Source: Puniceicoccales bacterium
GTDB taxonomy: Bacteria > Verrucomicrobiota > Verrucomicrobiia > Opitutales > LL51
NCBI GenBank assembly: GCA_031270475.1
Contig: JAISXO010000034.1
Coordinates: 29,491 to 93,490, forward strand
Direction: 5' to 3'
DNA length: 64,000 nucleotides
The position numbers were made by a program, and so were the translations under genes. This document shows, in pieces, positions 726-64,000 of this stretch. Below the pieces are notes generated by a model. It was not told the origin of the DNA and did not search any database. It worked only from the letters and a program-made list of their open reading frames with translations. Position 1 is the stretch's first letter. Each line of letters begins with the position of its first letter.

Positions 726-839
726 GGGGCAAAAGCTGTGCGGTTCACCGCACAAGGCCTGGAGCGAAGCTCCAGGCCTTTCAAGGAGCCGTAGGCTCCT
801 TGAGCTTTTGCCCCAAGCGCGCTCCTTCGGGGCGCGCTT
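726..839 (+). repeat. GC-rich nested-hairpin 'cloverleaf' element, copy C1
   Basis: Outer stem GGGGCAAAAGC (726-736) pairs with GCTTTTGCCCC (804-814). It encloses three hairpins: TGTGCGG-ttca-CCGCACA, AAGGCCTGGAGC-gaa-GCTCCAGGCCTT and CAAGGAGCC-gta-GGCTCCTTG. A trailing hairpin AAGCGCGC...GCGCGCTT spans 815-839. The element lies directly downstream of the accC stop. Confidence 0.85.
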
Positions 840-2741: not shown

Positions 2742-4385
2742 TTATTCTCCTAGGATTTCTTTCCCGCAGTCGGTGTCTTTGAATTTTACTTTTCTTTTTT
2801 CGCCATTTTCGAATTGTAAGAAAATTAACTCCGGCGAATATTCTTTTACTTTTTTATCCTGATTAAAAATCTTTAAATTCTGGGTTCCTTCGTTGGGTTT
2901 ACCTTTTCCGATGGACAGCATATCGCTGAGCATACTTTCAAAGGCTTGCGATTGTTCAGGGGGAATATTTTCATTCGTTTTTATATTTTGTATGCGATGG
3001 GGACTATGGGCTGCTCCCGCGTAGGCGAAGGTCCGCCAATTGTCAAATCCGATCTCCTTCAACAGCCAAGCGACGGTTCCATTTTGGGTTGTTGGAGGCG
3101 TGTTATAGTCTTTTAGGCCGACGAATAAAAACACAGGAATTTTGAGTTGATCGAAGATTTTTTTCAATTTCTTTCGGCTCATCCCACTCGTAATGGAAAG
3201 AGGATGGGCGTATTTATAAACGTATTTTGCTTCTTTGCCTTGGAATTCTTTAATGGGCATGGAGCAATCAATATTTTTGGGCACATCGTTCGGCGCAGCG
3301 TGTTGAAAGGCGAAGTGATTAAATGAATCAAAATACATGGGGAGTTGACCGATTGAAGAACTTCCCCAGGATTCGTTGATATAGGGCGATGCTAATCCTA
3401 CGCCGAGTTTGAAATTTTCGTTAAGGAAAGCGTATTCATTGGCGATCATTTGGGTCATGATATGGCCGCCGTTGCTATGGCCGATGAGAGCCATTCTCGT
3501 TCCATCGATATAATCCAATTTTTTAATTTCCTCGATTTGGTCTTTAATTTGTTCCCTAATATTTCCGTTGCCATTTTTCCCGCGTATGGTGATAGTAGCG
3601 AAAGCGATATCGTTTTGCACGAGGTAGCGGGCTAGCGGTTGGAGGCCGTATGTAAAATTATATGGTGTCCCCAAGAAATCATCGAAGGAAATGTCGAGTT
3701 GATTGGGATCGGAGTAACGGCAATTATCTTTAATTCCGACGCTGCCTCCATGTAACCAAAAAATGCAGGGATAGGGAGGTGTTGCGCGATCGGATTTCGG
3801 AGCATACACATAGCACGTAATATTTTCATCATCCGTTGCCACTGTTACTTCTTCGAGTTTTATGGAATCGATATTTTTCAAATTAAATTTACTATAAACT
3901 TCCTGAAAAGCTTTCCATGGGTCTGATGTATTTAAAAAATTGTTTAATTCCTTCGTAAGGGTTTCAATTTGATTTTGGAAGTTCTGGATCCTATCATATG
4001 TAGCGGTTATGCCTTTGGAGAGTATTTTCAATCGTTTTTGTTCTTTTTCTTTATCTTCCGGTGCAATGGATTCCGACTCCAGTTCTTGGATGAGGGTATT
4101 CTGTTGGGCTTGGCGGTCAGCATAATCTTTTTTCGCGCGTTTCAGTGCGATCCATGGACTACAATATCTTCCCAGATTTTCAGTGCGATTTTCAATCAAT
4201 TGGCTAAATTTGGTCGCTTGAGCCAATGTTTGACATGCTTTTACCGCATCAACTTCGCTATCATCGCTGCAAATTTCAGAAAGTGATTGTTTTGGGGGAG
4301 GATCGCCGTATAGCTTTAGTGCACTGAATTGCAAAGCATTCAATAATAATAAACTTGTAACACATGTTTTAAATTTAATATTCAT
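2742..4385 (-). CDS. secreted coiled-coil / alpha-beta hydrolase (esterase-lipase like), paralog A
   Basis: 547 aa. Hydrophobic N-terminal signal-like MNIKFKTCVTSLLLLNALQFSALKLYG. WLHGG oxyanion-type motif and GHSNGG nucleophile elbow (GxSxG). C-terminal AHSPH. Confidence 0.7.
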   Translation of the reverse strand: MNIKFKTCVTSLLLLNALQFSALKLYGDPPPKQSLSEICSDDSEVDAVKACQTLAQATKFSQLIENRTENLGRYCSPWIALKRAKKDYADRQAQQNTLIQELESESIAPEDKEKEQKRLKILSKGITATYDRIQNFQNQIETLTKELNNFLNTSDPWKAFQEVYSKFNLKNIDSIKLEEVTVATDDENITCYVYAPKSDRATPPYPCIFWLHGGSVGIKDNCRYSDPNQLDISFDDFLGTPYNFTYGLQPLARYLVQNDIAFATITIRGKNGNGNIREQIKDQIEEIKKLDYIDGTRMALIGHSNGGHIMTQMIANEYAFLNENFKLGVGLASPYINESWGSSSIGQLPMYFDSFNHFAFQHAAPNDVPKNIDCSMPIKEFQGKEAKYVYKYAHPLSITSGMSRKKLKKIFDQLKIPVFLFVGLKDYNTPPTTQNGTVAWLLKEIGFDNWRTFAYAGAAHSPHRIQNIKTNENIPPEQSQAFESMLSDMLSIGKGKPNEGTQNLKIFNQDKKVKEYSPELIFLQFENGEKRKVKFKDTDCGKEILGE

Positions 4386-4551: not shown

Positions 4552-6405
4552 CTACATGATTGCTAAGATTTCTTGGCCACATTCCGTTTCTCCGAAGGGT
4601 ATAAGTTCTACATCATTGTTTGCATTTAACTTCATAAAAAAAGAACGTTCAGCGAAAAATTTCATGGGCTTTTGTTGTTGAAAAGAATCGTACGCCGTCG
4701 TTGCTCCATTTGATATTTCGCTTAGATCTTGAGTTCCGTTGGTGGGTTGTATACCCTGTGCAATTTGTAAAACATTGGGAAGCATTTGTCGAAACCCTTC
4801 CTCCGATGGGGGATTATTGAGATCAATCTTAAGTCGGTGAGGGCTATGTAATGCATTTTTGTAGGCTAATATTTTCCAATTGGTCAGTTCCATGTTGTGT
4901 AATCTCCAAGCTAATGTTGCGCCCTGTGTTGCGGGAAGGGTATTGCTATCGGCTGTTCCCATGAGAATAAATAACGGAGGGAGTGATGCTAGCTTGGGTT
5001 GTAGTTCGGCATCACTCATTCCGCAGGTTGGTGAAAATGGATAGGTACATTGAAGGATGTATTGCGCATGTTCAGCATTTTTTAATAGGTCATTTATTTT
5101 ATAGTTGCCTATTGATTGATTTTCAATCGAAATGGAACGATCATCGGGGGTTGCAAATTGAAAAGCGCAATCTCCAGATCGATTGTTGCCATATCCATCA
5201 AAATAAATAGCTCCTGACCATGCCTCATTCAATACGGGAGATACAAACGCTATCCCTGATTTGAAATTATCAATTAGGAATTGAGGGTCATTGGCGATCA
5301 ATAAAGACAAAATATATCCTCCAATGCTATGTCCCCAAAAGGTAATTTTATCGGTATCGATGTAAGCCAGTGTTTTAATCTTTTCTACTTGGTCTTTAAC
5401 CTGTTGTCGGAGATTACCTTTGCCGTTTTCAGAATCAAATTCAATGGTTGCACAGACTATACCGTTGGAGGCAAGAAATCGCGCTAATGGTTGGATGCCT
5501 ACGGAAACGTTGTTCGTGCGCCAATCTTGGTGAGAAGGAGGTGCCACTTGCTCAGACGCTTGTGTGTTTGGAAAAATTTGGGGGAGAGGCGGTGTCACTT
5601 GTTCTGGCGATTCGATATGTAAAGTCCCCTTCTCTTTTAACGCGCTTGCGATACTGCCTCCATGTAACCAAATGACACAAGGTAATTTTTCCCCTGAAGT
5701 TTTTTGGGTCGGAGAATAGACAACCATCGGAAGCTGCTTGTCATCCGTTTCCGTTATCAGCGTTTCGAATGTTATCACTGGGTCATGGCACTTGAGCGAA
5801 AGTGGTTCATATAGCAGAGGAGCTGCTATTTCCTGAATTAGTTTTAATTCGTTCCGTATTTTCCCTTCCCAATTATAAAATCTCCCCATTAGCGAAATCG
5901 ATTCTTGCGATTCTTGATGAGCTATAATGCGTTCAAGTTTTTCTTTTTCGGCCTCTGGAAGATTATTATTCCATGTTCCTATAATTGAATCGAGTTCTGT
6001 CTTGATTGAAGTTAAAGATGGGGCAACTAAGTTACAGAATTCATCTACGATCCCTTGAAAATTTTCAATTGCAGAACTCAATTGAACGGCTTGGTTCACA
6101 TTTTGACAATTTTTGCAGTTATTTAGATTATTGGCAGTTTTTTGCGAATATATTTGGGCGGAGCGTTTGATGTCCGTTTGGGAGGTATTTGCCTGTTCTC
6201 CTTGGATTTTCTGTTCTACTTGGCGCACTTTGTTCCGGAATGCTACGGTTTCCGGAGACAGATTTTCCATCATCAAAGCGGGATCTTGTTTAGCTTCAGA
6301 AGATGATTGTTCTGGAGGAGGATCGCCGTACAGCTTTAGTGCACTGAATTGCAAAGCATTCAATAATAATAAACTTGTAACACATGTTTTAAATTTAGTA
6401 TTCAT
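4552..6405 (-). CDS. secreted coiled-coil / alpha-beta hydrolase, paralog B
   Basis: 617 aa. The first ~30 residues are almost identical to paralog A. WLHGG and GHSIGG motifs, and a C-terminal ...ECGQEIL motif shared with paralog A (DCGKEIL). Confidence 0.7.
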   Translation of the reverse strand: MNTKFKTCVTSLLLLNALQFSALKLYGDPPPEQSSSEAKQDPALMMENLSPETVAFRNKVRQVEQKIQGEQANTSQTDIKRSAQIYSQKTANNLNNCKNCQNVNQAVQLSSAIENFQGIVDEFCNLVAPSLTSIKTELDSIIGTWNNNLPEAEKEKLERIIAHQESQESISLMGRFYNWEGKIRNELKLIQEIAAPLLYEPLSLKCHDPVITFETLITETDDKQLPMVVYSPTQKTSGEKLPCVIWLHGGSIASALKEKGTLHIESPEQVTPPLPQIFPNTQASEQVAPPSHQDWRTNNVSVGIQPLARFLASNGIVCATIEFDSENGKGNLRQQVKDQVEKIKTLAYIDTDKITFWGHSIGGYILSLLIANDPQFLIDNFKSGIAFVSPVLNEAWSGAIYFDGYGNNRSGDCAFQFATPDDRSISIENQSIGNYKINDLLKNAEHAQYILQCTYPFSPTCGMSDAELQPKLASLPPLFILMGTADSNTLPATQGATLAWRLHNMELTNWKILAYKNALHSPHRLKIDLNNPPSEEGFRQMLPNVLQIAQGIQPTNGTQDLSEISNGATTAYDSFQQQKPMKFFAERSFFMKLNANNDVELIPFGETECGQEILAIM

Positions 6406-12008: not shown

Positions 12009-12169
12009 AGAGGAGTTTTATGACCGAAAATTTTTCTGAAAAATTTGACGAAAAAAATTGACAGAGAGCGTGGAAATTCAACGTTATTCCGTTGTCTTCC
12101 AATGCAAGGGAAGATAAATCAAAAAAGTTTCATTTCATGATGGAAATAAAACCAGAAAGATAAGATTGA

Positions 12170-12197
12170 GGGGAGCTGAAAAGGCTCCCTTTTTTTG
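12170..12197 (+). terminator. rho-independent terminator
   Basis: GGGGAGC-tgaaaag-GCTCCCT followed by TTTTTTT (12190-12196). Confidence 0.65.
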
Positions 12198-12804: not shown

Positions 12805-12835
12805 AACGCTTTCTAGTCGCTATGGTTACTTTCGG

Positions 12836-12857
12836 GCGCACTTCGGTGCGCTTTTTT
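12836..12857. terminator. hairpin terminator between convergent genes
   Basis: GCGCAC-ttcg-GTGCGC followed by TTTTTT. Confidence 0.7.
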
Positions 12858-16552: not shown

Positions 16553-17056
16553 ATAAATTTCTAAAAGAACCTAAAAATATTGTCTGCATTTTTTATTAGT
16601 TCCTCTTTTTTCTCAAAGGTAAAAACATCGAAGAATAAAAGGTTATACATTTGTTCCCTAATGGTTTCTTTTCGATTTTACGGAAAAGGTTTGTTTCTCT
16701 CGATATCCAAATATTCCCGAAACCCACTAGCGAACATAGCAATCATCCTCTAAAACATTTCTAATTTCATTTTTCATTTTAGGGGAGATATTTGGCGACT
16801 CATAAATTTCTAAAAGGACCTAAAAGCATTGTCTGTATTTTTTATTAGTTCCTCTTTTTTCTCAAAGGTAAAAACATCGAAGAATAAAAGGTTATACATT
16901 TGTTCCCTAATGGTTTCTTTTTGATTTTACGGAAAAGGTTTGTTTCCCTCGATATCCAAATATTCCCGAAACCCACTAGCGAACATAGCAATCATCCTCT
17001 AAAACATTTCTAATTTCATTTTTCATTTTAGGGAAAATATTTGGCGACTCATAAAA
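16553..17056. repeat. tandem duplication, 2 x ~249 bp
   Basis: 16553-16801 and 16802-~17056 are near-identical by eye, with a few substitutions or indels. Each unit contains the 3' end of a minus-strand open frame (...PKMKNEIRNVLEDDCYVR*) plus ~170 bp downstream. Confidence 0.9.
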
Positions 17057-17263
17057 TTCTTCTAGTTGGTACATAGCGTTTGCTCTTTCCTTAGGCGGGA
17101 GAACATAGTTTTTTACATTTCCCAGGCATTTGCGACACTTGTTGTCTGCCGCTTGAATTACGAAGTTGTTTAACTTAAATCTTGCTGTTACATGAACTTT
17201 TCTAGATCCAAAGGCTTTCCTTCCTAAAACTTCCCCAGTATCCCCATCCAGAGCAGATGTCCT
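16976..17263 (-). pseudogene. start-less 95-codon open frame (gene remnant?)
   Basis: The frame is open from the TAA at 17264-17266 to the TAG at 16976-16978: RTSALDGDTGEVLGRKAF...NKCRKCLGNVKNYVLPPKERANAMYQLEEFYESPNIFPKMKNEIRNVLEDDCYVR. The first ATG is at codon 64. No family recognised. Confidence 0.3.
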
Positions 17264-19474: not shown

Positions 19475-19517
19475 AATGTGAAATGTTTTTGATTGAGTTC
19501 TTCTTGATGTGTTTTTT

Positions 19518-19588
19518 GTGCACCCGTGGAGGCTTCGCCTCCTAACCTTTTTTCAAAAGGTTTTGCGGCTTTGCCGCAACGGGTGCAC
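19518..19588. repeat. nested-hairpin element with the same architecture and a different sequence
   Basis: Outer stem GTGCACCCGT / ACGGGTGCAC encloses GGAGGC-ttc-GCCTCC, AACCTTTT-ttca-AAAAGGTT and TTGCGGC-ttt-GCCGCAA. Lies between convergent genes. Confidence 0.8.
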
Positions 19589-19596
19589 AAGTAAAT

Positions 19597-26081: not shown

Positions 26082-27458
26082 TTATATATATCGCCGCACG
26101 TTTGCCGACGGAATCGCAAGGAACGTACGATATTTAGTCACGGTTCGTCGAGCAATCCAAATGCCTTCATTTTGAAGTATTTGGGCGATTTTTTCATCGC
26201 TGAGCGGTTTGTTTTTGTTTTCATTTTTGATAATATTTTTAATACTCTCTCGGAGCGTGTTTTGTGCGATGAGGGAGCCATGATTACCGTGGGAAAAAAA
26301 GAAATCCAGCGGAATAATTCGATGTGGAATTTGAACATATTTATTTTTGACAGCCCGGGAAAGTGTTGTGGAGTGGATTTCGAGGCATTCCGCCACTTGT
26401 TTTTGACTCTGCGGACGAAGAAAATCACTGCCATTTTCTAGGAAGTCGCTTTGAAATTTCAAAATATATTCGGCAATTTTTTGTAAAGTTTCCCGGCGCT
26501 TGTGCAGCATCTTAACCAAAAATTGGGCTTGTTGTTTGTTCTCGGTAAAAAAATTACGGTCTTCGCGCTTTGATGAATGGGTAAACATCCTTAGGTAAAG
26601 GTCATTTATACGAATTTCCGGTGCACCGCGAACTTCGCAGCTCCAATGGCCGTCAATTTTTTGGAAAATAATTTCTGGAACAATCGCCGGATTGGCGTTG
26701 GGCATAATCGTTTTGAGCGGTGCAAAATTTAGCAATTTCAAGGGCACCAAAAGTGTACGCAATTCGGATGCCGTCTTACATAATTTTCTCCGCAATTTAG
26801 CGAATCGGCGATGCTCGAGGTCATCGAAATAGTGTGCAACGAGGTCATGGAGCGGCGTATTTTCCGGAATTTGCAACCGAAAGCAATCCTGCAAATCATG
26901 GGCACCAATCCCCTTCGGCGAAAGCGATCGCAATATCGCATAGGCTGTTTCAAAAACATTTTGCCGCGCATCGTCGGTCCGCGCATCGCAATTTTCCTCG
27001 CCATCCGGCCAAGAAATCCCGTACTGCTGAGCCGCATCCTCTGGCAAAAATCCGCGATCATCGAGGCTATTAATTAGCGTCGTCAGTGCCGTTTTTGTCG
27101 CCTCGTCCAAATCGGGAACCTGGGCGAGGAGGTAATCCTCAGGTGAATCTTCGGCACTAATATTTTCTAAAAAATTTGGATTGCTTTCTTCGTTATTTGG
27201 TATATCGCTCGTGCGCGCGCGCGCGCTCATATTAATAGTACTTTCCTTACTTGCACTCGCTGGAAAGCCGTAGGGAGCCGTGTCGGCGATGTCGAGAAGG
27301 GGGTTGCGCTGAATTTCCGCAGCAATGAGCCGGTAAAGTTCCTCGGTCGGCAATTGCAAAATGTCCAGAGAACGGAGCATGGACGGAGATAGTCGTTGGC
27401 TTTGAATTTGTAGGCGATCGTTCCTTAGGTCCACGGCGTAAGCATGGAGAGATACCAA
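26082..27458 (-). CDS. rpoN: RNA polymerase sigma-54 factor
   Basis: 458 aa. Gln/Leu-rich region I, HTH region, and RpoN box ARRTVTKYR near the C-terminus. Confidence 0.95.
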   Translation of the reverse strand: MVSLHAYAVDLRNDRLQIQSQRLSPSMLRSLDILQLPTEELYRLIAAEIQRNPLLDIADTAPYGFPASASKESTINMSARARTSDIPNNEESNPNFLENISAEDSPEDYLLAQVPDLDEATKTALTTLINSLDDRGFLPEDAAQQYGISWPDGEENCDARTDDARQNVFETAYAILRSLSPKGIGAHDLQDCFRLQIPENTPLHDLVAHYFDDLEHRRFAKLRRKLCKTASELRTLLVPLKLLNFAPLKTIMPNANPAIVPEIIFQKIDGHWSCEVRGAPEIRINDLYLRMFTHSSKREDRNFFTENKQQAQFLVKMLHKRRETLQKIAEYILKFQSDFLENGSDFLRPQSQKQVAECLEIHSTTLSRAVKNKYVQIPHRIIPLDFFFSHGNHGSLIAQNTLRESIKNIIKNENKNKPLSDEKIAQILQNEGIWIARRTVTKYRTFLAIPSANVRRYI

Positions 27459-27708
27459 CTTTTTTCAAGAAATGAAGTTAATTTTTGAGGGAATCAATCT
27501 GTGCCAAAAGAATTTCCGCAGCAATGAGCCGGTAAAGTTTCTCGGTCGGCAATTGCAAAATGTCCAGAGAACGGAGCATGGACGGAGATAGTCGTTGGCT
27601 TTGAATTTGTAGGCGATCGTTTCTTAGGTCCACGGCGTAAGCATGGAGAGATACCAACTTTTTTCAAGAAATGAAGTTAATTTTTGAGGGAATCAATCTG
27701 TACCAAAA
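27311..27708. repeat. tandem duplication, 2 x 199 bp, covering the rpoN 5' end and upstream region
   Basis: 27311-27509 and 27510-27708 differ at only a few positions by eye. The distal copy holds an rpoN start codon at 27657 and 49 identical or near-identical codons. Confidence 0.9.
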
Positions 27709-29087: not shown

Positions 29088-29505
29088 AACTTTCCATTAA
29101 ATTTATTTATTTATTTTGTTTTTGGCGCCGAGTTTTTGGAGATCGTCGCATTGGGAGAAAAGGCCGCCGCGGCCGTTAATTTTCGGAATAATTTTATCAT
29201 CAAACTGCTCGTGCACCTTGCCAAAGAGCTTGTACAGTTCGCGCAATTCGTCAAGCAATCCACAAAATTTATCGTACAATTTTCCACTGAGGCCGGGTCA
29301 ACTTTCCATTAAATTTTCTTTTTTAATTGATTTTTTATTTTTGGCGCCGAGTTTTTGGAGATCGTCGCATTGGGAGAGAAGGCCGCCGCGGCCGTTGATT
29401 TTCGGAATAATTTTATCATCAAACTGCTCGTGCACCTTGCCAAAGAGCTTGTACAGTTCGCGCAATTCGTCAAGCAATCCACAAAATTTATCGTACAATT
29501 TTCCG
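29088..29505. repeat. tandem duplication, 2 x ~212-219 bp, covering the rmuC 3' end and the rmuC-serS junction
   Basis: 29088-29299 and 29300-~29505 are near-identical apart from an AT-rich indel patch. Both copies end (minus strand) with ...TTAATGGAAAGTT(A/G)A, encoding LMES-stop. Confidence 0.9.
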
Positions 29506-30608
29506 CCGCGATCGGCAATTTCCTGTGCATTGAGGTTTTGTTTTTCGACCTGCCAAATCGCTTGAATCAGTCTCAGTGTCAAAAATAGCGTGGAAGGATA
29601 AACAATAATTACATTTTTCTGACGAGCGTATTCACAGATATCTTTTTTATGGGCCGAGGGATTGGAGACGACGCTCGCGTAGGCCGATTCGATGGGTAAA
29701 AACATCAGTAAAAATGGGCAAATATCGATGGCATTTTTAATTTGGTGGTATTTGGCTACTTCGTCGATGTGTTTTTGAATGGAGGCAATATGTTGCTGGA
29801 AAAACCGTTCCCGTTCCTGGGGGTCGGGGGTATTGACCATGCGTTCGTAGGCGGAAAGGGAGACCTTTGCATCGATCAAAATCCACTGATTGCGCGGGAG
29901 TTTGATGAGGAAATCCGGTCGAGCGGCTCCGTCATCGATCTTCAATTCGAGCCCCCTCCCTTGCTTGACATAGTCGCCATTTTCTTCAGATAGCCCGGCC
30001 TGCTCGAGGAGATTTTCCAGTTGAACCTCGCCCCAATCTCCCTGAATCTTCGCGTTATTGCGCAGGGCATTGGTCAAATTTTCGGCTTCGTTATGCATTT
30101 TTTCCACGCTGTCGAGGAGCGATTTGAGGTGGATCGACAGTTCCGTGCGCGATTTTGTTTCCGGAGAGAAAATTTCGGTTTTGAAGGTAGAGAATTCTTT
30201 TTGGAGATCGACGATAAGGTGGCCGATTTCCTTTTGTGTCTCCTCGGAAAATTTTTGTTTTTTGGCTTCTAGAATTTCCTGGGAGAGGCTGGAGAGCTCG
30301 AGTTTGAGTTGCTCTCGATGTTTGAGGATTTCGCTACGAGCGGTTTCGATAGCAATTTTTTCACCGGAGAGCCGTTGAAAATTTTCAAAAAGCTGATTGA
30401 ATTCCTGAGTTTTCTGTAAAAACTGCGCTTCAATGGCGGATAATCTCCCTTGTAATTCGGCCTTTTGCGTGGCGATTTCGGTGAAGCGCTCTTGGATATC
30501 CTTGAGTTGTGCAGCCAATGCGTTACATTCACTGCGATATTTATTAGCAAAATAGCAGATAATTCCTAGGAAAAACCCACAAGAAATAAGACACAGCGCA
30601 ATGATCAT
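29298..30608 (-). CDS. rmuC: DNA recombination protein RmuC
   Basis: 436 aa. N-terminal TM helix, long coiled coil, and RmuC nuclease-like C-domain (RPDFLIKLP..., IDAKVSL). Confidence 0.9.
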   Translation of the reverse strand: MIIALCLISCGFFLGIICYFANKYRSECNALAAQLKDIQERFTEIATQKAELQGRLSAIEAQFLQKTQEFNQLFENFQRLSGEKIAIETARSEILKHREQLKLELSSLSQEILEAKKQKFSEETQKEIGHLIVDLQKEFSTFKTEIFSPETKSRTELSIHLKSLLDSVEKMHNEAENLTNALRNNAKIQGDWGEVQLENLLEQAGLSEENGDYVKQGRGLELKIDDGAARPDFLIKLPRNQWILIDAKVSLSAYERMVNTPDPQERERFFQQHIASIQKHIDEVAKYHQIKNAIDICPFLLMFLPIESAYASVVSNPSAHKKDICEYARQKNVIIVYPSTLFLTLRLIQAIWQVEKQNLNAQEIADRGGKLYDKFCGLLDELRELYKLFGKVHEQFDDKIIPKINGRGGLLSQCDDLQKLGAKNKKSIKKENLMES

Positions 30609-30935
30609 GACAAAATATTATCTAAACCGCCAAAGAAATTTATTCAAATCCAAAAAATTTCCCCCAAAAAAGCTTGACATTAATTAAAAGCGCTGAAATA
30701 CTTGCTGCCAAGCGCTCTTGGATATCCTTGAGTTGTGCAGCCAATGCGTTACATTCACTGCGATATTTATTAGCAAAATAGCAGATAATTCCTAGGAAAA
30801 ACCCACAAAAAATAAGACACAGCACAATGATCATGACAAAATATTATCTAAACCGCCAAAGAAAATTATTCAAATCTAAAAAAAAATCCCAAAAAAGCTT
30901 GACATTAATTAAAAGCGCTGAAATACTCGCTACCA
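30484..30935. repeat. tandem duplication, 2 x 226 bp, covering the rmuC 5' end and the divergent promoter region
   Basis: 30484-30709 and 30710-30935 are near-identical. ORF 30640..30834(-) is the decoy rmuC 5' fragment; its first 41 aa match RmuC closely. Confidence 0.9.
30899..30927 (+). promoter_or_regulatory. candidate sigma70-type promoter (a duplicate sits at ~30673-30701)
   Basis: aaaaaagcTTGACA (30899-30904), 17 nt, AATACT (30922-30927). Lies 11 nt upstream of ATG 30938. Confidence 0.5.
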
Positions 30936-36234: not shown

Positions 36235-36366
36235 AGCGAGATTTGTCTAGCCCTTTAGAATTTTTTACCGTTGTCAAGCTTTTTTATTTTTTAGTGTTAT
36301 TCCCGTGGATGAATTCCCATCCCGAAGATATGATAAATAACAGTTCAGTGTGTGGCGGAAAATTTT

Positions 36367-36426
36367 ACGCGCCGCTTGCTCCCACCCTCTACCTTCCAGT
36401 CTTGAAAGAATTTCAGGACCTATCAA
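36367..36426 (-). promoter_or_regulatory. promoter-like module with conserved motif (faces sufS)
   Basis: The minus strand reads CTTGATA (36426-36421), 17 nt, AAGACT, 5 nt, GTAGAGGGTGGGAGCAAGCGGCGCGT. Lies 133 nt upstream of the sufS ATG. Confidence 0.55.
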
Positions 36427-36478
36427 GTCGTTTCTGAAAAGATAATTTTCAAAAATAAAAATATTTTGTATTTTCTTC

Positions 36479-36506
36479 TTGACATAATTCATAAAATCGC
36501 GACAAT
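36479..36506 (+). promoter_or_regulatory. candidate promoter of the pilin-like gene
   Basis: TTGACA (36479-36484), 16 nt, GACAAT (36501-36506). Divergent from the module at 36367-36426. Confidence 0.45.
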
Positions 36507-36628
36507 CGCTTCATGATTGATTTGCAAAGCAACAAAGCGTAAAAAGTAAAAGTAAATCTTTTACGTTAGTTGAGATTGTTTTTACTATTGCCATCATCGG
36601 CATTTTACTAGCCATTCTTCCGCCGGCA

Positions 36629-37330
36629 ATGAGTGCCATCAAACTCGGCGCACAAAAGGCAAAGGATCAATCCAACTTGCAAAAAATTGCCGAAGCTTGG
36701 CGCGGAGCCGTGATCGATCGCGGCTGGATAATCGATGGTGAAAGTGGCGGAAATATAAAATCTACCGATTTTGCAGAGCAATTGGCCGGACGAGATAATG
36801 GGAAAAGTATCTCGGATATGATTTTGAATGATCCCTATGTTTGGATTTCTCCAGGCGATAAATATGCCTCAAGAATTCAAAAAGAATCACTTTGTATTTT
36901 AGTGGATGATTCTGTCCGATTCGCTGACGCTTTTATGGAAGTTAATGGCAATTTTATGGTCTCGGGAAAATACCTACTTAGTTATTGCATCGTATGTAGG
37001 TTGCCCGGGAATGTTCCTCTCGATACGACGCCGCTCGGTTTTACGCGTGGACTTAACAAAAATGGAAAGTGGGATGAAAAAGCTAGCCTATATGGCTCGA
37101 AGGGCGGCTATGTCGTTTTCTGCGATGGTCACGTCGCGTGGTTTGACGGCAGTAAGCCAGCACGATTCTTGAAATGGGGTGGGTCGGGTGTTACACGACT
37201 GATATTTGTGAAGCAGTTCCTGGTGGCACTTGGATTACATGTGCCCACGATTATGATAGAATTCAAGCAGCTTACTGGGGCGAAGATGCTAAAGCCATCC
37301 TCAGTTCCGCCGGTATCGGTTGATGATTGA
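36629..37330 (+). CDS. prepilin-type / H-X9-DG family protein (N-terminus apparently frameshifted)
   Basis: C-terminal DGHVAWFDG fits H-X9-DG. In-frame upstream sequence (36560-36628) encodes SFTLVEIVFTIAIIGILLAILPPA but has no in-frame start. The ATG at 36513 is in another frame and stops at 36540. Confidence 0.6.
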   Translation: MSAIKLGAQKAKDQSNLQKIAEAWRGAVIDRGWIIDGESGGNIKSTDFAEQLAGRDNGKSISDMILNDPYVWISPGDKYASRIQKESLCILVDDSVRFADAFMEVNGNFMVSGKYLLSYCIVCRLPGNVPLDTTPLGFTRGLNKNGKWDEKASLYGSKGGYVVFCDGHVAWFDGSKPARFLKWGGSGVTRLIFVKQFLVALGLHVPTIMIEFKQLTGAKMLKPSSVPPVSVDD

Positions 37331-37335
37331 AAATT

Positions 37336-37613
37336 TTCACGTGCCGCTTGCTCCCACCCTTGAAAGAATTTCAGGGCCTGTCAAGTCGTTTCTGAAAAGA
37401 TAATTTTCAAAAATAAAAATATTTTGTATTTTCTTTTTGACATAATTCATAAAATCGCGACAATCACTTTATGGTCGATTTGCAACGCAACAAAGCGTAA
37501 GGAGCAAAAGTAAATCTTTTACATTGATTGGAATCGTTTTTATTATTGCCATCACCGGCATTTTACATGCCGCTTGCTCCCACCCTTGAAAGAATTTCAG
37601 TGCCTGTCAAGTG
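37336..37613. repeat. second copy of the divergent-promoter / pilin 5' segment, flanked by two short-form modules
   Basis: 37336-37567 matches 36365-36608. Short modules at 37339-37384 and 37565-37610 (minus) read TTGACA, 17 nt, AAGGGTGGGAGCAAGCGGCA(C/T)GT, which is a 13-nt deletion relative to the long form. Confidence 0.85.
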
Positions 37614-37854
37614 ATTTTTTTGGAATTATTAATACTAGCTTCGTCATTTGGATTTCTAGTATCGGTGAAAGTTGAAATAAATCGCCAGGAATACCTTGAA
37701 AAACTGATATCTACTTTCCCTCTTTGAAAAAACCGGACCTCTGCCAAGTGATTTTTTGAAAATAAATCAATAAAAAATAACAAAACATTGATAGATTGCG
37801 TTTCCAGTTTCCAAAAAGTAATTCCCGGAATTTTTATTTATACTTTGACAATAA

Positions 37855-39054
37855 TTGCCGAAAAATACGTTTATTCCCATGGACGCGCTCGTCAAACTCG
37901 TCGACGGTATCGATACAATTGTTGGACAGGAGTCCCTATCGGAACGCCTATCGCAAAAAAAAATCCTGAAAGTGAAACTTGGTGTCGATCCAACTCGCCC
38001 CGATTTGACCTTTGGCCATATGGTCGTTTTCAATAAATTGCGCCAGTTTCAGGATCTCGGCCACGAAGCAATTTTGCTGATCGGCGACCATACTGCTACC
38101 ATTGGCGATCCTTCCGGTCGTTCTTCGACGCGCCCGGTGTTGACTACCCAAGAGGTCGACCAAAATGCCAAAACTTACCTCGAGCAGGCCTTCAAAATTA
38201 TCGATCCCGAGAGGACGACGATTCGGCGCAATAGCGAGTGGTTTCGAAGGATGACGTTCGACGATATGCTCATTATTGCCCGTAAAATGACGGTTGCGCG
38301 GATGCTTGAGCGGGACGATTTTGCGAAACGCTACCGCGAAAATGAGCCCATTTCCATTGTCGAGTTTTTATATCCTTTGATGCAGGGGTATGATTCGGTC
38401 ATGCTCGAAGCCGACGTCGAGCTTGGCGGAACGGATCAATTTTTCAATTTATTGGTTGGCCGCGCGCTCCAAAGGGATTATGGCCAGCGGGAGCAGATTG
38501 TCATCACGATGCCGCTCATCGTCGGTCTTGATGGGAAGCGTAAAATGTCAAAAAGTTACGATAATTACATTTCATTTAACCATTCTTCAAAGGATATGTT
38601 TGGGCGGATCATGTCGATTCCGGACGAAGTGATGTGGACCTATTTCAAGTTATTATTGGAGTATTCTGACGGGGCGATCGAGGCGTTGAAGGGGGGGCAT
38701 CCCATGGATGCGAAAAAATTTTTGGCTCGATCGTTGGTGGCGCGATTTTACGGTCCAGAAGTCGGGGAGCAAGAGTTAGCGGATTTTGAGGCGGTATTTT
38801 CGCATGGAGAAATCCCGGAAGCGATGCCGGAATTTTCGTTACAAGCGATGGCAAAGGATCCGGTTACTTTAGCCGACGCGATGGCATATTCGCAATTTTT
38901 TGAAAGCAATCGAGAGATTCGCCGACTCATTGAGCAAGGAGCTGTCAAAGTTAATGGGAAGAGTGAAAAGAATTTTAAGTTTCCTTTACGATCCGACCGC
39001 TGTCCCCATGTCATTCAGTCTGGCAAGCGCATATTTTTAAAAGTTATTCCGTAG
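37855..39054 (+). CDS. tyrS: tyrosyl-tRNA synthetase
   Basis: 399 aa. Class I motifs (TFGHMV HIGH-like, KMSKS). C-terminal S4-like domain (IRRLIEQGAVKVNG). Alternative start at 37879. Confidence 0.9.
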   Translation: MPKNTFIPMDALVKLVDGIDTIVGQESLSERLSQKKILKVKLGVDPTRPDLTFGHMVVFNKLRQFQDLGHEAILLIGDHTATIGDPSGRSSTRPVLTTQEVDQNAKTYLEQAFKIIDPERTTIRRNSEWFRRMTFDDMLIIARKMTVARMLERDDFAKRYRENEPISIVEFLYPLMQGYDSVMLEADVELGGTDQFFNLLVGRALQRDYGQREQIVITMPLIVGLDGKRKMSKSYDNYISFNHSSKDMFGRIMSIPDEVMWTYFKLLLEYSDGAIEALKGGHPMDAKKFLARSLVARFYGPEVGEQELADFEAVFSHGEIPEAMPEFSLQAMAKDPVTLADAMAYSQFFESNREIRRLIEQGAVKVNGKSEKNFKFPLRSDRCPHVIQSGKRIFLKVIP

Positions 39055-39505
39055 AAAATAATTAGTGCGTTTATGGCTAATTATTTTTTGCATTATCGCA
39101 GTCGAAAAATTATTTTTTTGTAACGGCGATATATCTTTAAATAGATTTTGAGGCGGTATTGCACACAGAGAAATTGAAAAAAAACAAAAAGGATTTTAAG
39201 ATTCCTTTATAATTCGACCGCTGTCCCCATATTATTCAGTCCGGCAAGCGCATATTTTTAAAAGTTATTCCGTAGGAAATAATTAATGTGTTTACGGTTA
39301 ATTATTTTTTGCATTATCGCAATCGAAAAATTATTTTTTTGTAACGGCGATATATCTTTAAATAGATTTTGAGGCGGTATTGCACACAGAGAAATTGAAA
39401 AAAACAAAAAGAATTTTAAGATCCTTTTACGATTCGACCGCTGTCCCCATGTCATTCGGTCTGGCAAGCGCATACTTTTAAAAGTTATTCCGTAGGAAAA
39501 TGATT
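38972..39505. repeat. tandem repeat, ~2.4 x ~221 bp, reiterating the tyrS 3' end
   Basis: ATTTTAAG...CGACCGCTGTCCCCAT...GGCAAGCGCATA..TTTTAAAAGTTATTCCGTAG recurs at 38972, 39193 and 39413. The units also carry AGATTTTGAGGCGGTATT, which matches tyrS at ~38785. Confidence 0.85.
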
Positions 39506-39545
39506 AATTTATTTACAATTGAATCTTTTTTTTTACACTAATGCA

Positions 39546-42684: not shown

Positions 42685-42740
42685 TTAGAGATAAACGAAC
42701 TTTTGCCGGATACAAGGTAAATGTTTGAATGGAGGTTGTT

Positions 42741-42842
42741 GGGGGCAAAAGCTGCGCGGTTCCCGCGCAAGGATAGAGGATTCTCCCCTATCCTTCAAGG
42801 GGCGTAGCCCCTTGAGCTTTTGCCCCCGCGCCCGCAGGGCGC
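42741..42842 (+). repeat. cloverleaf element, copy C3
   Basis: Outer stem GGGGGCAAAAGCT / AGCTTTTGCCCCC. Inner hairpins GCGCGG-ttc-CCGCGC, AAGGATAGAGGA-ttc-TCCCCTATCCTT (one mismatch) and CAAGGGGC-gta-GCCCCTTG. Trailing hairpin GCGCCC-gca-GGGCGC. Confidence 0.85.
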
Positions 42843-42947
42843 CCTCTAGGATACGAATTTTCCATTTCTCCGTGAGAGCATCCAATCGAAATAAGCAAAA
42901 AAGGCTAAATATCTATTTAAAACAATCAAGTTTTAATAAAAAATTGA

Positions 42948-43598
42948 TTAGTCCATTTTCCAGCTAACGACGTCAATGGAGGTATTGTTATTACCGACGG
43001 TAAAAATCGCGACCTTTTCGCGCAATCCGGTGGAGGGAACTTTTTCCTTGATAGTTGTGTAAGCCGTATCGTTAAAGGCAGATTGGGGGATTACCGCATT
43101 GTCATCGGAATCATCTTCGACGATGAGGTGGATGTCACGGTTATTGAAGCGATCGGCCAATATGCTATAATCGATGGTACCGTCGGATTTTTTTAAAAAG
43201 TCGTCATCGGAGAATTCGACGAATTGTGTTCCATTAGGGTTGAGGTATTCATGGGCCGAAGAGAGGGCATCGCCATCGATATCCTTACCGGAGAGCGCGC
43301 GAATGAGATTTTCCGAGGATGTTGTGGAGAGTGTAATGATTTGGTCGGCATTGAGGGCTGTTCCTTGCGTTACAATCTGAGGAAAATAGCCGTACTCGCG
43401 GTAGTAGGCATTGAGGCCGAAAACGTAGCGACTGAAGTGGATTTTCGATTGGTTAGCATACATCGAGCGCTTAACTTTACCAAATGTTGGCAGAATAAGA
43501 GAGGCTAAAACTGCGATTGTTGCGATAACAACGATGAGTTCCAGCGTTGTAAAGGCACGATTTTTTTTACTATATTTCGAAGAAAAACGGGGATACAT
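42948..43598 (-). CDS. prepilin-type N-terminal cleavage/methylation protein
   Basis: The internal ATG of ORF 42948..43661 gives MYPRFSSKYSKKNRAFTTLELIVVIATIAVLASLILP. Confidence 0.75.
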   Translation of the reverse strand: MYPRFSSKYSKKNRAFTTLELIVVIATIAVLASLILPTFGKVKRSMYANQSKIHFSRYVFGLNAYYREYGYFPQIVTQGTALNADQIITLSTTSSENLIRALSGKDIDGDALSSAHEYLNPNGTQFVEFSDDDFLKKSDGTIDYSILADRFNNRDIHLIVEDDSDDNAVIPQSAFNDTAYTTIKEKVPSTGLREKVAIFTVGNNNTSIDVVSWKMD

Positions 43599-47043: not shown

Positions 47044-47668
47044 ATTTTTTTTGTATTACGAATTGTTGATGTTTTTTTTATTCTGTTCGGGGTGTACACT
47101 TTTCAAGACGACTCCCGATCGGACGCGTCTATTTGACATTGGATTTCGGGGGACGCAATCGGCGATGTCTTCGGTAGACAGTGCAAAAATTTGTCTTATT
47201 TTGGGGAGTTTTCCGGATTATCTCGATGGATCACCGATCATCACGAAGATTGGTGAGCATGAATTGAAAAATAATCCGCGCTATCGTTGGGCCAAACCGC
47301 TTTCGGAAACGATTCTTTACATTGTAAAACGCAGTATTTTGCAAAGTTTTTCGAAAGTTTACGTCTATGAATTCCCCAAAGATACCATGGATAAGATTGA
47401 TTTTACGCTATGTTTAGACGTCGATGGGCTGGAGATTTGCGAAGTGACGCAGCGGATTATCTTTAAAGGGACGTGGACTTTTTTAGATGCGAAGCAACGG
47501 AATATAACCCATGCTCCATTTGAATTTTGCGAGTCATTTGATGATTTTTCGGATCGTTACGGAGAAATAGTGGCCAAGGTGGAGCAGGTTATCCATCATT
47601 TAGGCGACGCGATTGTAAAGGAAATGGATCTTATTTTTCTAAAAAGAATAACGGGAAATAATCCCTAG
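47033..47668 (+). CDS. ABC-transport auxiliary lipoprotein (PqiC/YmbA-like)
   Basis: MKTRFFLYYELLMFFLFCSGC lipobox. Its position directly after an MCE gene is typical. Confidence 0.6.
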   Translation: MKTRFFLYYELLMFFLFCSGCTLFKTTPDRTRLFDIGFRGTQSAMSSVDSAKICLILGSFPDYLDGSPIITKIGEHELKNNPRYRWAKPLSETILYIVKRSILQSFSKVYVYEFPKDTMDKIDFTLCLDVDGLEICEVTQRIIFKGTWTFLDAKQRNITHAPFEFCESFDDFSDRYGEIVAKVEQVIHHLGDAIVKEMDLIFLKRITGNNP

Positions 47669-47958
47669 CAAGCCGTTTGGGATGCGTTTAAAAGAAGAAG
47701 AGAATATTAGTGGAGAGAGGCGTCGCATTTCTTTTTTTGATATGAATGATAGAAATAAGAAGAAATAGTGGCCAAGGAGGAGCAGGTTATCCATCATTTA
47801 GGCGACGCGATTGTAAAGGAAATGGATCTTATTTTTCTAAAAAAAATAACGGGAAATAATCCCTAGCAAGCCGTTTTGGATGCGTTTAAAAGAAGAAAAG
47901 AATATTAGGGGAGAGGCGTCGCATTTCTTTTTTTGATATGAATGATGGAAATAAGAAG
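47563..47958. repeat. tandem duplication, 2 x 198 bp, spanning both 3' ends of a convergent gene pair
   Basis: 47563-47760 and 47761-47958 are near-identical. The junction reads gatAGAAATAagaAGAAATAgtgg, with AGAAATA microhomology. Confidence 0.9.
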
Positions 47959-53618: not shown

Positions 53619-53739
53619 CCCCCCGGCCCCCCTTTCGGGGGGCCGGGGACTGGGGCAAAAGCCCAAGGCGTCGAAGACGCCTTAGGAAGATGGGGCGAAG
53701 CCCCATCTTCTGCGCGCTTCGCGCGCGGGCTTTTGCCCT
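53619..53739 (-). repeat. cloverleaf element, copy C4 (inverted inner order) with an extra leading hairpin
   Basis: Leading hairpin CCCCGGCCCCCC-tttc-GGGGGGCCGGGG. Outer stem GGGGCAAAAGCCC / GGGCTTTTGCCC encloses AAGGCGTC-gaa-GACGCCTT, GAAGATGGGGC-gaa-GCCCCATCTTC and GCGCGC-ttc-GCGCGC. Lies between convergent ftsW and recD2. Confidence 0.85.
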
Positions 53740-55928: not shown

Positions 55929-56007
55929 AGATTCCTCCTTTACCCATATTGGGAAGTTTTGAAGAAATTCAAGTTTTTGAAAAAACTTATTGGCGAAGGG
56001 ATTTTTT

Positions 56008-56067
56008 ACATGCCGCTTGCTCCCACCCTCTACTCTCCAGCCTTGCCGCACTTTTTATTGTTGTCAA
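56008..56067 (-). promoter_or_regulatory. promoter-like module with conserved motif (faces recD2)
   Basis: The minus strand reads aaaaaaaCTTGACA (56067-56062), 17 nt, AAGGCT, 5 nt, GTAGAGGGTGGGAGCAAGCGGCATGTAAAAAA. Confidence 0.55.
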
Positions 56068-57311: not shown

Positions 57312-57504
57312 GAAAAATTTATAAATTTCCCGAAAAAACCATCCATCCAAAGGGAGGGTCCGAGAGGCTCTCCCAATTTTTGTTTGTACTAAATTATTTT
57401 GAAATTTTATTATTTTTTTAAGATATTCTCGCTGATTTATTTCAATTTCCTCCGGTACTGGAAACTTAAATGACAAGGCTACCATTAATATTTAAAAAAA
57501 CAAC

Positions 57505-59236: not shown

Positions 59237-59343
59237 AAATAAAAAAACAATACTTGAATAATATTCCATAGTCTCTAAAAATTTCGTCCCCTTGTCAACA
59301 TTATTCGTAAATTTTTCCGAAAATTGCCAAAGAACTGTTGTTT

Positions 59344-59521
59344 AAAGGCTGCGCGTCCTTAGGATCCGTGAGAGGGAAGCTATTCCCGGAGCTGCCCCGC
59401 GGCGAAGCCGCGGGGGCAGCCAGCCTTCGGCCGAGCCCGGCCCTTCGGGCCGGGCTCGGCCGTCCAATGAGGTCAAGAAGTTGAGACTCCTTGCGGAGGT
59501 CTGGTCTGGGCGGAGCCCTTT
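59344..59521. repeat. GC-rich multi-hairpin element, variant copy C5
   Basis: Hairpins GGGAA-gcta-TTCCC, GCTGCCCCGCGGC-gaa-GCCGCGGGGCAGC (59391-59420), GGCCGAGCCCGGCCC-ttc-GGGCCGGGCTCGGCC (59429-59461) and GACTCC-ttgc-GGAGGTC. Flanked by AAAGGCT...AGCCCTTT. Confidence 0.75.
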
Positions 59522-59600
59522 GGCAACATAAATTCTATCGACTGCCGCAATATTTTCTCGTATTTGGTGGAGGGATTCTAAAAATGCGTCCCTCACAAGG

Positions 59601-61126: not shown

Positions 61127-61214
61127 GGGGCAAAAGCCGCGCGCAAAGCGCGCAAGGCCTGGGGCGAAGCCCCAGGCCTTTCAAGGAGCCTTCGGCTCCT
61201 TGGGCTTTTGCCCC
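61127..61214 (+). repeat. cloverleaf element, copy C6
   Basis: Outer stem GGGGCAAAAGCC / GGCTTTTGCCCC encloses GCGCGC-aaa-GCGCGC, AAGGCCTGGGGC-gaa-GCCCCAGGCCTT and CAAGGAGCC-ttc-GGCTCCTTG. Confidence 0.9.
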
Positions 61215-62370: not shown

Positions 62371-62457
62371 GGGGCGAAAGCCCAAGGAGCCGAAGGCTCC
62401 TTGAAGGCCTGGGGCTTTGCCCCAGGCCTTGCGCGCTTCGCGCGCGGCTTTTGCCCC
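62371..62457 (-). repeat. cloverleaf element, copy C7 (inverted copy of C6)
   Basis: It is the reverse complement of C6 apart from about 3 differences. Outer stem GGGGCGAAAGCC / GGCTTTTGCCCC (one G-T pair). Starts 7 nt after the ychF stop. Confidence 0.9.
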
Positions 62458-62560
62458 ATTCCGCCCGCACCGCGGCATAATTCAGGGTTCGGATTTGTTT
62501 GTGCCTGGGGTTATTGTGAAAGCAATCAGAGATTTAGTTAGGGCGGGATTATTTGTTAGA

Positions 62561-62663
62561 GCGAGGGAGGCGAACAAATATTGCCTCAAAGGAATATTGC
62601 CTCAGAGGAAAAGAATATGAAGTTAAGGATGGCGATGTAATTATTTTTCCTTTTAATAGATAA
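62561..62663 (+). pseudogene. decayed duplicate of the ychF 3' end abutting the lpxB start
   Basis: 62561-62663 aligns with ychF 62277-62364: ...AAATAT(T/C)GCCTC...GAAAAGAATATGAAGTTA(A/G)GGATGGCGATGT(A/G)ATTATTTTTC(C/G)TTTTAAT... It carries an internal 16-bp duplication and ends 2 nt before the lpxB ATG. Confidence 0.8.
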
Positions 62664-63818: not shown

Positions 63819-64000
63819 GGGCGGCCTAAGGGCTGTGCGCCATTAGGAATCCGCGCCAGGAGATCCATCTCCTGGACCTGGATAGAGCCCGGCGCGAAGC
63901 GCCGGGCTAAAATAGAAAGAGTCCCCGCGGCTACGCCGCGGGGACTCTTAAAAAGGGGACTCTTGAAAGGAGGTCAAGGAGTCTGGAGTCCTTGTGGGGG
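63819..64000. repeat. GC-rich multi-hairpin element, variant copy C8 (runs to the window edge)
   Basis: Hairpins CCAGGAGAT-cc-ATCTCCTGG (63856-63875), AGCCCGGCGC-gaa-GCGCCGGGCT (63886-63908) and GAGTCCCCGCGG-cta-CGCCGCGGGGACTC (63919-63947). Confidence 0.7.

Follow-up and report, generated by a model that had tools for sequence, protein, structure and literature searches.

A lineage-restricted family of GC-rich cloverleaf repeats at gene 3′ ends in Puniceicoccales bacteria

Eight intergenic sites in a 64-kb window

Contig JAISXO010000034.1 of a Puniceicoccales bacterium (assembly GCA_031270475.1) carries, between positions 29,491 and 93,490 of its forward strand, a series of short GC-rich elements whose core type folds into a cloverleaf, three hairpins closed by an outer stem. 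This 64,000-nt stretch, hereafter the window, is dense with housekeeping genes and has a G+C content of 39-49% in 2-kb windows along its length (0.44 overall). The cloverleaf is a multi-copy element that occurs in either orientation; some loci have acquired it and orthologous loci elsewhere have kept it, its pairing is kept by double changes, and its evolution is strand-symmetric. An original prediction, made from the letters of the window, had placed eight sites of one architecture and one family here. Its sequences, coordinates and quoted stems are correct, and we retain its sites as C1 to C8, with L-numbers for the loci of relatives. The sites and their parts are listed below, where a, b and c denote the three hairpins and scores in bits are those of the covariance model described after the list.

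726..814, + strand: C1, core cloverleaf, hairpin order a-b-c on the + strand, 99 bits; orthologues at L003, L015, L019, L021/L036 and L035
Parts of C1: outer stem 726-736/804-814; hairpin a 738-753; hairpin b 754-780; hairpin c 781-803
Position of C1: spacer running from the accC stop (700) to the lepA start (885)
815..839: extra hairpin beside C1, on the c side, GC-rich AAGCGCGCTCC-TTCG-GGGCGCGCTT; varies among orthologues
19516..19590, no strand: C2, separate cloverleaf, outer stem TTGTGCACCCG/CGGGTGCACAA, hairpins GGAGGC, AACCTTTT and GCGGC; between the convergent TIG-domain gene and acpS
42742..42826, + strand: C3, core cloverleaf, 83 bits; between two minus-strand genes, upstream of pyrG
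42828..42842: extra hairpin beside C3, on the c side, GCGCCC-GCA-GGGCGC
53621..53648: extra hairpin beside C4, on the c side, CCCCGGCCCCCC-TTTC-GGGGGGCCGGGG; not in the C4 orthologues
53652..53739, - strand: C4, core cloverleaf in reverse orientation, 81 bits on the - strand; takes up the 127-nt spacer of the convergent ftsW/rodA and recD2 genes
59344..59521, no strand: C5, family-2 composite, a larger multi-branched array of GC-rich triloop hairpins; between divergent infA and lptF/G
61127..61214, + strand: C6, core cloverleaf, 108 bits; upstream of ychF
62371..62457, - strand: C7, core cloverleaf in reverse orientation, 98 bits on the - strand; 6 nt past the ychF stop
62474..62662, + strand: decayed duplicate of the ychF 3′ end, copying the last ~177 nt of ychF (62188-62364)
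63819..64000, no strand: C8, family-2 composite; downstream of lpxB, clipped by the window end

The eight sites are three distinct things. The shared architecture and family membership proposed for all of them hold for the five core cloverleaves (C1, C3, C4, C6 and C7), but C2 stands separate and C5 and C8 form a larger composite family. The core element spans 85-89 nt (~88) and has the order GGGGCAAAAGC-hairpin a-hairpin b-hairpin c-GCTTTTGCCCC, with three perfect hairpins enclosed by an 11-13-bp outer stem, GGGGCAAAAGC/GCTTTTGCCCC, that resembles terminal inverted repeats. Hairpin b of C3 (GGATAGAGGA/TCCCCTATCC) is unlike that of the other copies and contains one A·C mismatch. The five core sites form stable folds both as DNA and as RNA. 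As single-stranded DNA (ssDNA) each closes into a four-way junction of -46 to -63 kcal/mol (z-scores against dinucleotide shuffles, -8 to -11.6), and the RNA folds reach -59 to -75 kcal/mol. With one mismatch allowed, the 11-mer of the outer stem occurs 11 times in the window against 1.65 expected, a count that none of 100 shuffles attains.

A covariance model made from 24 oriented cloverleaf copies recovers exactly the five core sites in the window, at 81-108 bits. The core copies have a definable orientation, because the opposite strand scores only 51-59 bits. By this measure C1, C3 and C6 read a-b-c on the + strand, and C4 and C7 read c-b-a; the last two, whose hairpins had been described as reordered, are inverted copies. 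C2, which has the same four-way architecture but an unrelated outer stem, scores 29 bits on either strand. The composite family (~190-320 nt) is built on its own conserved scaffold, CCAGGRGATCCATCYCCTGGACCTGGAT ... GAGGTCAAGGAGTC-nnn-GACTCCTTG, packed with variable GC-rich triloop hairpins and arranged as tandem units in relatives; it has only the CAAGGAG-type hairpin in common with the cloverleaf.

Three of the five core sites are accompanied by an extra, unrelated GC-rich hairpin, which lies on the c side every time. All 17 GC-rich perfect hairpins of the window with a stem of at least 7 fall inside the eight sites. Spurious open reading frames (ORFs) of 80-93 aa cross the elements at 42725-42967 (+) and 59342-59623 (-), and automatic annotation could call them hypothetical proteins.

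Distribution and genomic position

Scanning 185,579 species genomes with the exact pattern gave 42 stretches, and all true cloverleaves among them lie in seven termite-gut Puniceicoccales metagenome-assembled genomes (MAGs), to which the coding DNA of the window is 75-88% identical. Unrelated inverted repeats that share the 11-mer by chance account for about half of the matches (Prevotella, Bacteroidales, Subdoligranulum and others). Three further copies were found in the relatives' loci. The census comprises 25 copies across the window and 18 loci of the seven MAGs, in agreement with the expectation that further copies exist; most were found by the exact outer-stem pattern, and the counts include orthologous, non-independent copies.

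Searches elsewhere returned nothing related. At the Rfam gathering threshold one tRNA alone passes in the window and no family covers the elements, and permissive E-values on the element regions yield sub-threshold chance matches only. Of two metagenome pattern scans, one was empty and the other gave 22 stretches, none of them a cloverleaf; a scan of viral contigs gave a single, unrelated match, and plasmid BLAST gave no match. The literature was searched for the organism, the architecture and the exact 11-mer, and only eukaryotic primers and general REP/MITE or organellar papers came back. The cloverleaf is a real, undescribed and lineage-restricted repeat family; the original prediction had likewise recognised no described family in it, and both Rfam and the literature are negative.

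Several other identities were considered and rejected. An assembly artefact is ruled out by the recurrence of the elements at orthologous sites in independent assemblies, and a tRNA-like gene by Rfam, the fold and the strand symmetry described below. An invertible promoter switch is ruled out because inversion barely alters the sequence, CRISPR because there is no array, and a riboswitch because the elements hold no 5′ leader position. One look-alike came from a termite-gut metagenome contig (L044, 940-1110), where a ~170-nt near-perfect palindrome around GGGGCAAAAGCCCCTGGGGCCCCGGG shares the 11-mer and is unrelated to the cloverleaf.

The genes beside the cloverleaves are ordinary core genes. 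Neighbour pairs include accC/lepA, pyrG/hypothetical, ftsW/recD2, a 99-aa ORF/ychF, ychF/lpxB and gidA/gap, with flhB/marC, an ABC transporter/epimerase pair, leuS, alaS and lgt/metG as further neighbours. The elements had been described as sitting mainly after stop codons or between convergent genes. This is correct for the seven of the eight window sites that lie 3′ of at least one gene; the remaining site, 59344-59521, lies between divergent genes. In the census, 24 of the 25 copies are 3′ of at least one gene, often 5-60 nt from the stop codon and in some cases as close as 5-6 nt, the exception being L030:4024-4110, also between divergent genes. Orientation relative to transcription is unbiased (~5 independent loci 'same', ~8 'opposite').

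One explanation of this placement is an RNA-level 3′-end element that, transcribed with the upstream mRNA, would block 3′-to-5′ exonucleases, read-through or both, would insulate the neighbouring genes, and would serve as a compound, orientation-independent terminator or stabiliser in the way REP sequences do in E. coli mRNAs. The position 3′ of genes speaks for it, as do the maintenance of the structure at orthologous loci and a conserved promoter- or leader-like block that follows the element upstream of lepA, ychF and pyrG. C4 and C2 lie between convergent genes, where both strands would have to fold. The RNA fold is very stable (-50 to -75 kcal/mol) and, if transcribed, would form a strong 3′ structure in either orientation, which may be a reason why the host tolerates or keeps the element.

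The flanks point the other way. None of 27 copies has a T-tract 3′ of the element, where the sequence is A-rich or mixed; the accC-lepA copies and C2 have a T-run ahead of the element and an A-run behind it, which does no more than make the outer stem longer. Canonical hairpin-plus-T terminators are present elsewhere in the window (12834-12853, 12168-12192 and 57352-57374), not enriched over shuffles. A terminator scan flags the inner hairpin of C2, the extra hairpin by C4 and a hairpin in C8, and no core cloverleaf. Like an intrinsic (Rho-independent) terminator, the cloverleaf is a stable GC-rich hairpin structure directly downstream of a stop codon; unlike one, it has no downstream T-tract, is multi-branched and is orientation-independent. 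The proposal of a compound terminator is thus not supported. Moreover, only ~8 of the ~53 window genes have such an element, and a generic block gives no reason for the conservation of the stem GGCAAAAGC and of GCGCG and CAAGG. Together with the strand symmetry reported in the next section, these observations make a primary function in RNA unlikely. A stabilising or insulating role at RNA 3′ ends is plausible, either as a by-product or as the reason why the element is tolerated, but no strand-specific signal or T-tract supports it.

In lifestyle the cloverleaf resembles REP, BIME and REPIN sequences; in architecture it does not. Both are GC-rich palindromic intergenic repeats that lie mostly 3′ of genes, occur in both orientations and cluster with other hairpins. 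Both persist at orthologous loci with occasional new copies and no target-site duplication, and the REP-type repeats are thought to act as folded ssDNA and can double as mRNA 3′ structures. However, the REPs of Enterobacteria and Pseudomonas are single imperfect hairpins of 20-40 nt with a GTAG/CGTC tag and strand-defining bulges, whereas the cloverleaf is an 80-90-nt closed four-way junction with three perfect hairpins and no strand marks. The 25-copy alignment contains no conserved GTAG/CGTC tag at the stems, and GTAG is sporadic across variable loops (C1, C3 and L013). REPs are also linked to RAYT Y1 HUH transposases, whose genes they usually flank, and no RAYT is present in the sequence examined, that is, the window and the relatives' loci. 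Their copy number is high, in the hundreds per genome; the core cloverleaf numbers 5 in the 64 kb of the window, and 1 in 63 kb and 2 in 86 kb in relatives. A REP/BIME-like element, a recombination site or both is the best fit of the three options raised originally, but membership of the REP/RAYT system fails on the hairpin architecture and the missing tag. More broadly, no transposase, integrase, RAYT (Y1, PF01797), recombinase or HUH gene occurs among ~50 window ORFs or in the other loci scanned, which are a small fraction of each genome.

Bacterial miniature inverted-repeat transposable elements (MITEs; Correia/NEMIS, RPE, ERIC/IRU, BOX and Nezha) are likewise short non-coding repeats with terminal inverted repeats and presence/absence polymorphism. 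The cloverleaf differs in that none of the 27 copies has a target-site duplication, no related insertion sequence lies in the sequence examined, the interior consists entirely of nested perfect palindromes, and neither Rfam nor the literature gives sequence similarity. The only flanking repeat, 8 nt long at L066, is a self-complementary extension of the palindrome. The cloverleaf is not a demonstrable MITE.

Some copies are old. Each of the seven lineages available has the accC-lepA cloverleaf, which is 83-90% identical to C1; the spacer around it is unalignable, and the coding flanks are 76-86% identical. C3 has an orthologue at L007:3739-3819 and C4 has two (L071:6187-6274 and L073:5987-6068), and the gidA-gap spacer carries copies in L002, L005 and L066. 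C2 is conserved at the same spacer in four relatives (L074-L077), inverted relative to acpS. Hairpin b is group-specific among orthologues, and the copies within a genome are not homogenised. The conservation of GGCAAAAGC, GCGCG and CAAGG therefore represents constraint, not concerted evolution. Since these segments are conserved while hairpin b and the spacers are scrambled, the sequence comparison suggests a sequence-specific partner and retention by selection.

Covariation and strand symmetry of the stems

We aligned the 25 copies to the model, giving 940 stem cells in 39 pairs. Stem cells are paired in 98.6% of cases, compared with 30-54% in slid controls, and 23 of the 39 pairs show double-sided changes (120 cells). 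Of 500 shuffles, none equals the alignment on four of the five measures used, and 7 do so on the remaining one, further pair types. The compensatory changes reported originally are genuine and hold within orthologous groups. In the accC-lepA group, GGCCTGG/CCAGGCC in one copy is GGCATGG/CCATGCC in another, and GTGCGG/CCGCAC is GCGCGG/CCGCGC. In the C2 copies of L074-L077, GCGGC/GCCGC has become GCGGT/ACCGC, and GTGCAC has become ATGCAC/GTGCAT.

A strand-specific functional RNA is expected to tolerate G·U far better than A·C and to keep its loops on one strand. The cloverleaf stems comprise 919 Watson-Crick cells (97.8%), 8 G·T, 8 A·C and 5 other, with no conserved bulges. Counted on the mRNA strand, the tally is 8 G·U to 5 A·C, a difference without significance. 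The loops follow the same pattern. Triloops make up 66 of 72 loops, dominating over the tetraloops favoured in RNA, and in the element frame each loop is about as frequent as its complement (GAA 12/TTC 13, AAA 11/TTT 8, GTA 3/TAC 4). Sense and antisense fold energies are uninformative as a strand test, 5-7 copies favouring sense and 4 antisense.

Because G·T equals A·C, loops are equal in both complements and orientation is unbiased, the covariation does not indicate RNA, within a strand-symmetry sample that is small and partly made up of orthologous copies. The use of covariation as RNA evidence therefore falls, the signal being strand-symmetric, and the absence of any orientation preference, sense-strand G·U excess or loop bias counts against the RNA-level explanation. 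Textbook-looking 'compensatory covariation' may be DNA-driven, which calls for caution in covariation-based RNA discovery in metagenomes.

The loops are also of a DNA type. DNA triloops of the form d(C-GNA-G) have unusually high stability. With the mRNA strand as reference, GNA loops number 18 in sense and 16 in complement, and GNA/TNC loops account for 34 of 63 triloops against 12.5% expected. This is consistent with the earlier suggestion, based on the heptamer GCGAAGC, of a function at the ssDNA level. The heptamer itself is not enriched window-wide (13 against 10 expected), and 8 of its 13 occurrences lie in hairpins of these elements.

Strand symmetry, orientation independence and a conserved stem would also fit a duplex-DNA site of the host, bound or processed as duplex or cruciform by gyrase, an HU/IHF-like protein or a junction-binding protein, as proposed for BIMEs. 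The long persistence of copies at orthologous sites agrees with such a chromosome-architecture role, but GC-rich perfect palindromes are generally known to extrude poorly as cruciforms. Density is also very uneven, with 8 sites in 64 kb in the window against 1 core cloverleaf in 63 kb in L066-L068. An architectural site would, in addition, leave the recent gains and hairpin turnover described below without explanation, and we regard it as very improbable.

Turnover of the copies and a DNA-level interpretation

C7 is a recent copy. It is absent in three relatives, where only 2 nt separate ychF from lpxB. The window, by contrast, has C7 6 nt past the ychF stop, then 16 nt, the decayed duplicate of the ychF 3′ end (62474-62662) and lpxB. 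The duplicate lies in the interval between C7 and the lpxB start and keeps the sequence directly upstream of lpxB. Once oriented, C7 is 95.5% identical to C6, which lies inverted 1.2 kb away; other within-genome pairs are 60-85% identical. C6 is itself absent from the spacer upstream of ychF in L066, L067 and L068. Duplicated flanks as a signature of insertion occur at C7 alone among the copies.

At gene boundaries the window contains several other tandem duplications, 198-249 bp in size and with 91-98% identity (16553-17060, 27311-27708, 38966-39516, 47563-47959, 29114-29515 and 30484-30896). One spans the rpoN 5′ end and another the tyrS 3′ end, akin to the ychF duplicate by C7. They may be real gene-separating events or assembly artefacts of collapsed strain variants.

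Copies have also inverted in place. The group-specific hairpin b is kept in the inversions of L003 relative to the other accC-lepA copies, of L066 relative to L002/L005 at gidA-gap, and of C2 in the window relative to L074-L077. At a lower level of nesting, triloops flip between close orthologues or paralogues (L013 GTA/L037 TAC, L015a GAA/L015b TTC and L036 TTT/L021 AAA). The outer stem of L066 is extended outward by 11 bp. The inverted terminal repeats (ITRs) of parvoviruses such as adeno-associated virus (AAV) offer an analogy for the inversion pattern only. They too have an outer stem around small internal palindromes and two orientations that differ in arm order and loops, but AAV ITRs are telomeres of linear ssDNA with a Rep nicking site and a three-way (T-shaped) junction, whereas the cloverleaf is internal to a bacterial chromosome.

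Smaller parts turn over as well. At the infA/lptF spacer and after lpxB, L066 has AT-rich composite scaffolds, the latter degenerate, without the GC hairpins. As these hairpins are missing from the L066 scaffolds and the extra hairpin is missing from the C4 orthologues, GC-rich triloop hairpins are evidently modules that can be gained and lost. In this the extra hairpins and the family-2 arrays resemble the GC-rich mobile hairpins of organelles (yeast mitochondrial GC clusters, fungal double-hairpin elements and sponge repetitive hairpin-forming elements), in which GC-rich perfect modules invade AT-richer spacers, accumulate beside or inside one another and differ between close relatives. The likeness is one of analogy only, as those elements belong to eukaryotic organelles and have no conserved closing stem and no four-way junction.

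Gene content and gene order change at several copies. In L015, a 2.27-kb low-GC insertion (an ankyrin-repeat gene and two ORFs) lies between two direct copies of cloverleaf plus extra hairpin. Compared with the single copy of L035, its closest relative, the lepA-proximal copy differs on the a side alone and the accC-proximal copy from the b loop onward, as a crossover inside hairpin b would give. By our own estimate the chance of such a split is ~3%, and one position does not fit. L036/L021 have a similar layout, accC-cloverleaf-ankyrin-like gene-cloverleaf-lepA. The ftsW/recD2 cloverleaf is present where recD2 is convergent (window, L071 and L073) and absent where it is co-directional (L069, L070 and L072). 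The elements mark places of gene-order and effector-gene change between close relatives.

At the recD2 locus (53745-56051), gene order past recD2 is different in every relative, which indicates frequent rearrangement in the lineage. The window also encodes rmuC (29298-30608) along with recD2; RmuC, known to limit inversions at short inverted repeats, may matter in a palindrome-rich genome. The relatives carry effector-like genes in their spacers (ankyrin-repeat proteins and an IpgD-family phosphatase) and type III secretion genes (L015 1908-2807, L036 7801-8000, L067 7756-9765 and L069 16856-21113), which suggests a host-cell-associated lifestyle.

These rearrangements would be explained by a folded-DNA recombination site, at which a structure-specific recombinase or HUH nuclease acted on a single strand or cruciform by way of the GGCAAAAGC stem. 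In parallel with attC/IntI or REP/RAYT, though on a four-way junction, such an enzyme would turn the element around where it stands and carry copies of it to further gene ends, and would also insert or remove gene cassettes, the ankyrin effector genes among them. In its favour are the direct copies bounding the L015 insertion, with their crossover-like partition, and the same layout in L036/L021, the whole-element inversions in three orthologous groups, the correlation of cloverleaf presence with recD2 orientation, and the inverted pairs that flank ychF (C6/C7) and leuS-lgt (L030). Conservation of the stem around a variable interior recalls the attC sites of integrons (e.g. Vibrio cholerae repeats), which have a conserved structure, a variable centre and conserved outer paired boxes, lie just after ORFs, are recombined as a folded single strand, and can have an inserted gene between two copies. 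An attC site, however, forms one imperfect hairpin that carries extrahelical bases and R/L boxes (GTTRRRY; RYYYAAC ... GTTRRRY), and such sites stand beside intI in arrays of one orientation. The cloverleaf is perfectly paired with termini GGGGCAAAAGC/GCTTTTGCCCC, is dispersed among core genes in both orientations instead of in cassette arrays, offers no extrahelical bases or asymmetric marks for strand choice, and lacks a neighbouring integrase. The sequences examined contain no gene for an integrase, a recombinase or an HUH enzyme, and L015 is explained just as well by homologous recombination of repeats of ~90-125 bp. A dedicated recombination site is accordingly improbable in our judgement; a junction-recognising enzyme of this kind, if it existed, would represent a new structure-specific DNA recognition system.

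The interpretation that we favour, with a probability of about one half, is a nested-palindrome DNA repeat, non-coding and specific to this lineage, that lodges 3′ of housekeeping genes and spreads rarely, with fold-back or template-switch synthesis maintaining the complementarity of its arms. We base this DNA-level reading on the presence of both orientations, the strand-symmetric stems and loops, the DNA-type triloops on either strand and the flips at every level of nesting. The outward growth of a palindrome, the new inverted copy beside a tandem duplication and the recombination at copies point in the same direction.

Template-switch mutation at quasi-palindromes is an established mechanism. 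When the region becomes single-stranded in replication or repair, either strand could fold into the four-way junction, and fold-back or template-switch synthesis would then copy one stem arm from the other and remove mismatches. Such arm copying would give 'compensation' by Watson-Crick pairs only, wobble pairs showing no excess. Fold-back synthesis could also invert the enclosed parts, triloops at the level of a hairpin and the whole a-b-c interior at the level of the outer stem, and occasionally lengthen a palindrome. Rare new copies might be templated by a copy close by, or be made by a putative enzyme with specificity for the conserved GGCAAAAGC stem. Dispersed ~90-bp copies would in turn be substrates for recombination, with insertions between two copies and changes of gene order as outcomes.

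Several points weigh against this fold-back interpretation. Template switching is inferred from patterns and not observed. The only gain with a reconstructable history is C7. The absence of target-site duplications means that there is no classical transposition signature, and Pfam scans of the window and precomputed Pfam listings for the twelve relatives' loci fetched by protein look-up, a small part of each genome, contain housekeeping, secretion and effector-like genes only, with no mobilising enzyme. The 'invariance' of the outer stem is partly circular, because most copies were found by its exact pattern; the C4 orthologues, found by orthology, carry TGGCAAAAGC/GCTTTTGCCA, and robust conservation is limited to the inner 9 bp. 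Long retention and conservation imply some function beyond what fold-back synthesis accounts for. Finally, if arm-to-arm correction is fast, it would erase G·U whatever the function, and the missing G·U excess would then be compatible with an RNA-level role.

Under the fold-back interpretation, the elements would be a natural record of palindrome dynamics, including arm-to-arm correction, flip/flop of loops and whole elements, outward growth and copying beside a tandem duplication, preserved in an uncultured host-associated verrucomicrobial lineage.

Other repeats of the window lie apart from the cloverleaves. A ~42-nt motif, TTTTACRYGCCGCTTGCTCCCACCC, is found upstream of several genes (36363-36404, 37335-37391, 37561-37617 and 56004-56045), and its reverse complement lies upstream of recD2 in L072 (10430-10460); the motif resembles a leader or promoter-type element common to these genes. 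Two direct repeats of 228 nt with 88% identity (36386-36613 and 37344-37571) flank a 233-aa ORF (36629-37330) without a Pfam match. The adjacent paralogous S9/S33-type hydrolase genes at 2742-4385 and 4552-6405 share a 161-nt stretch that is 95% identical (4275-4435/6295-6455) and spans their 5′ ends and upstream regions.

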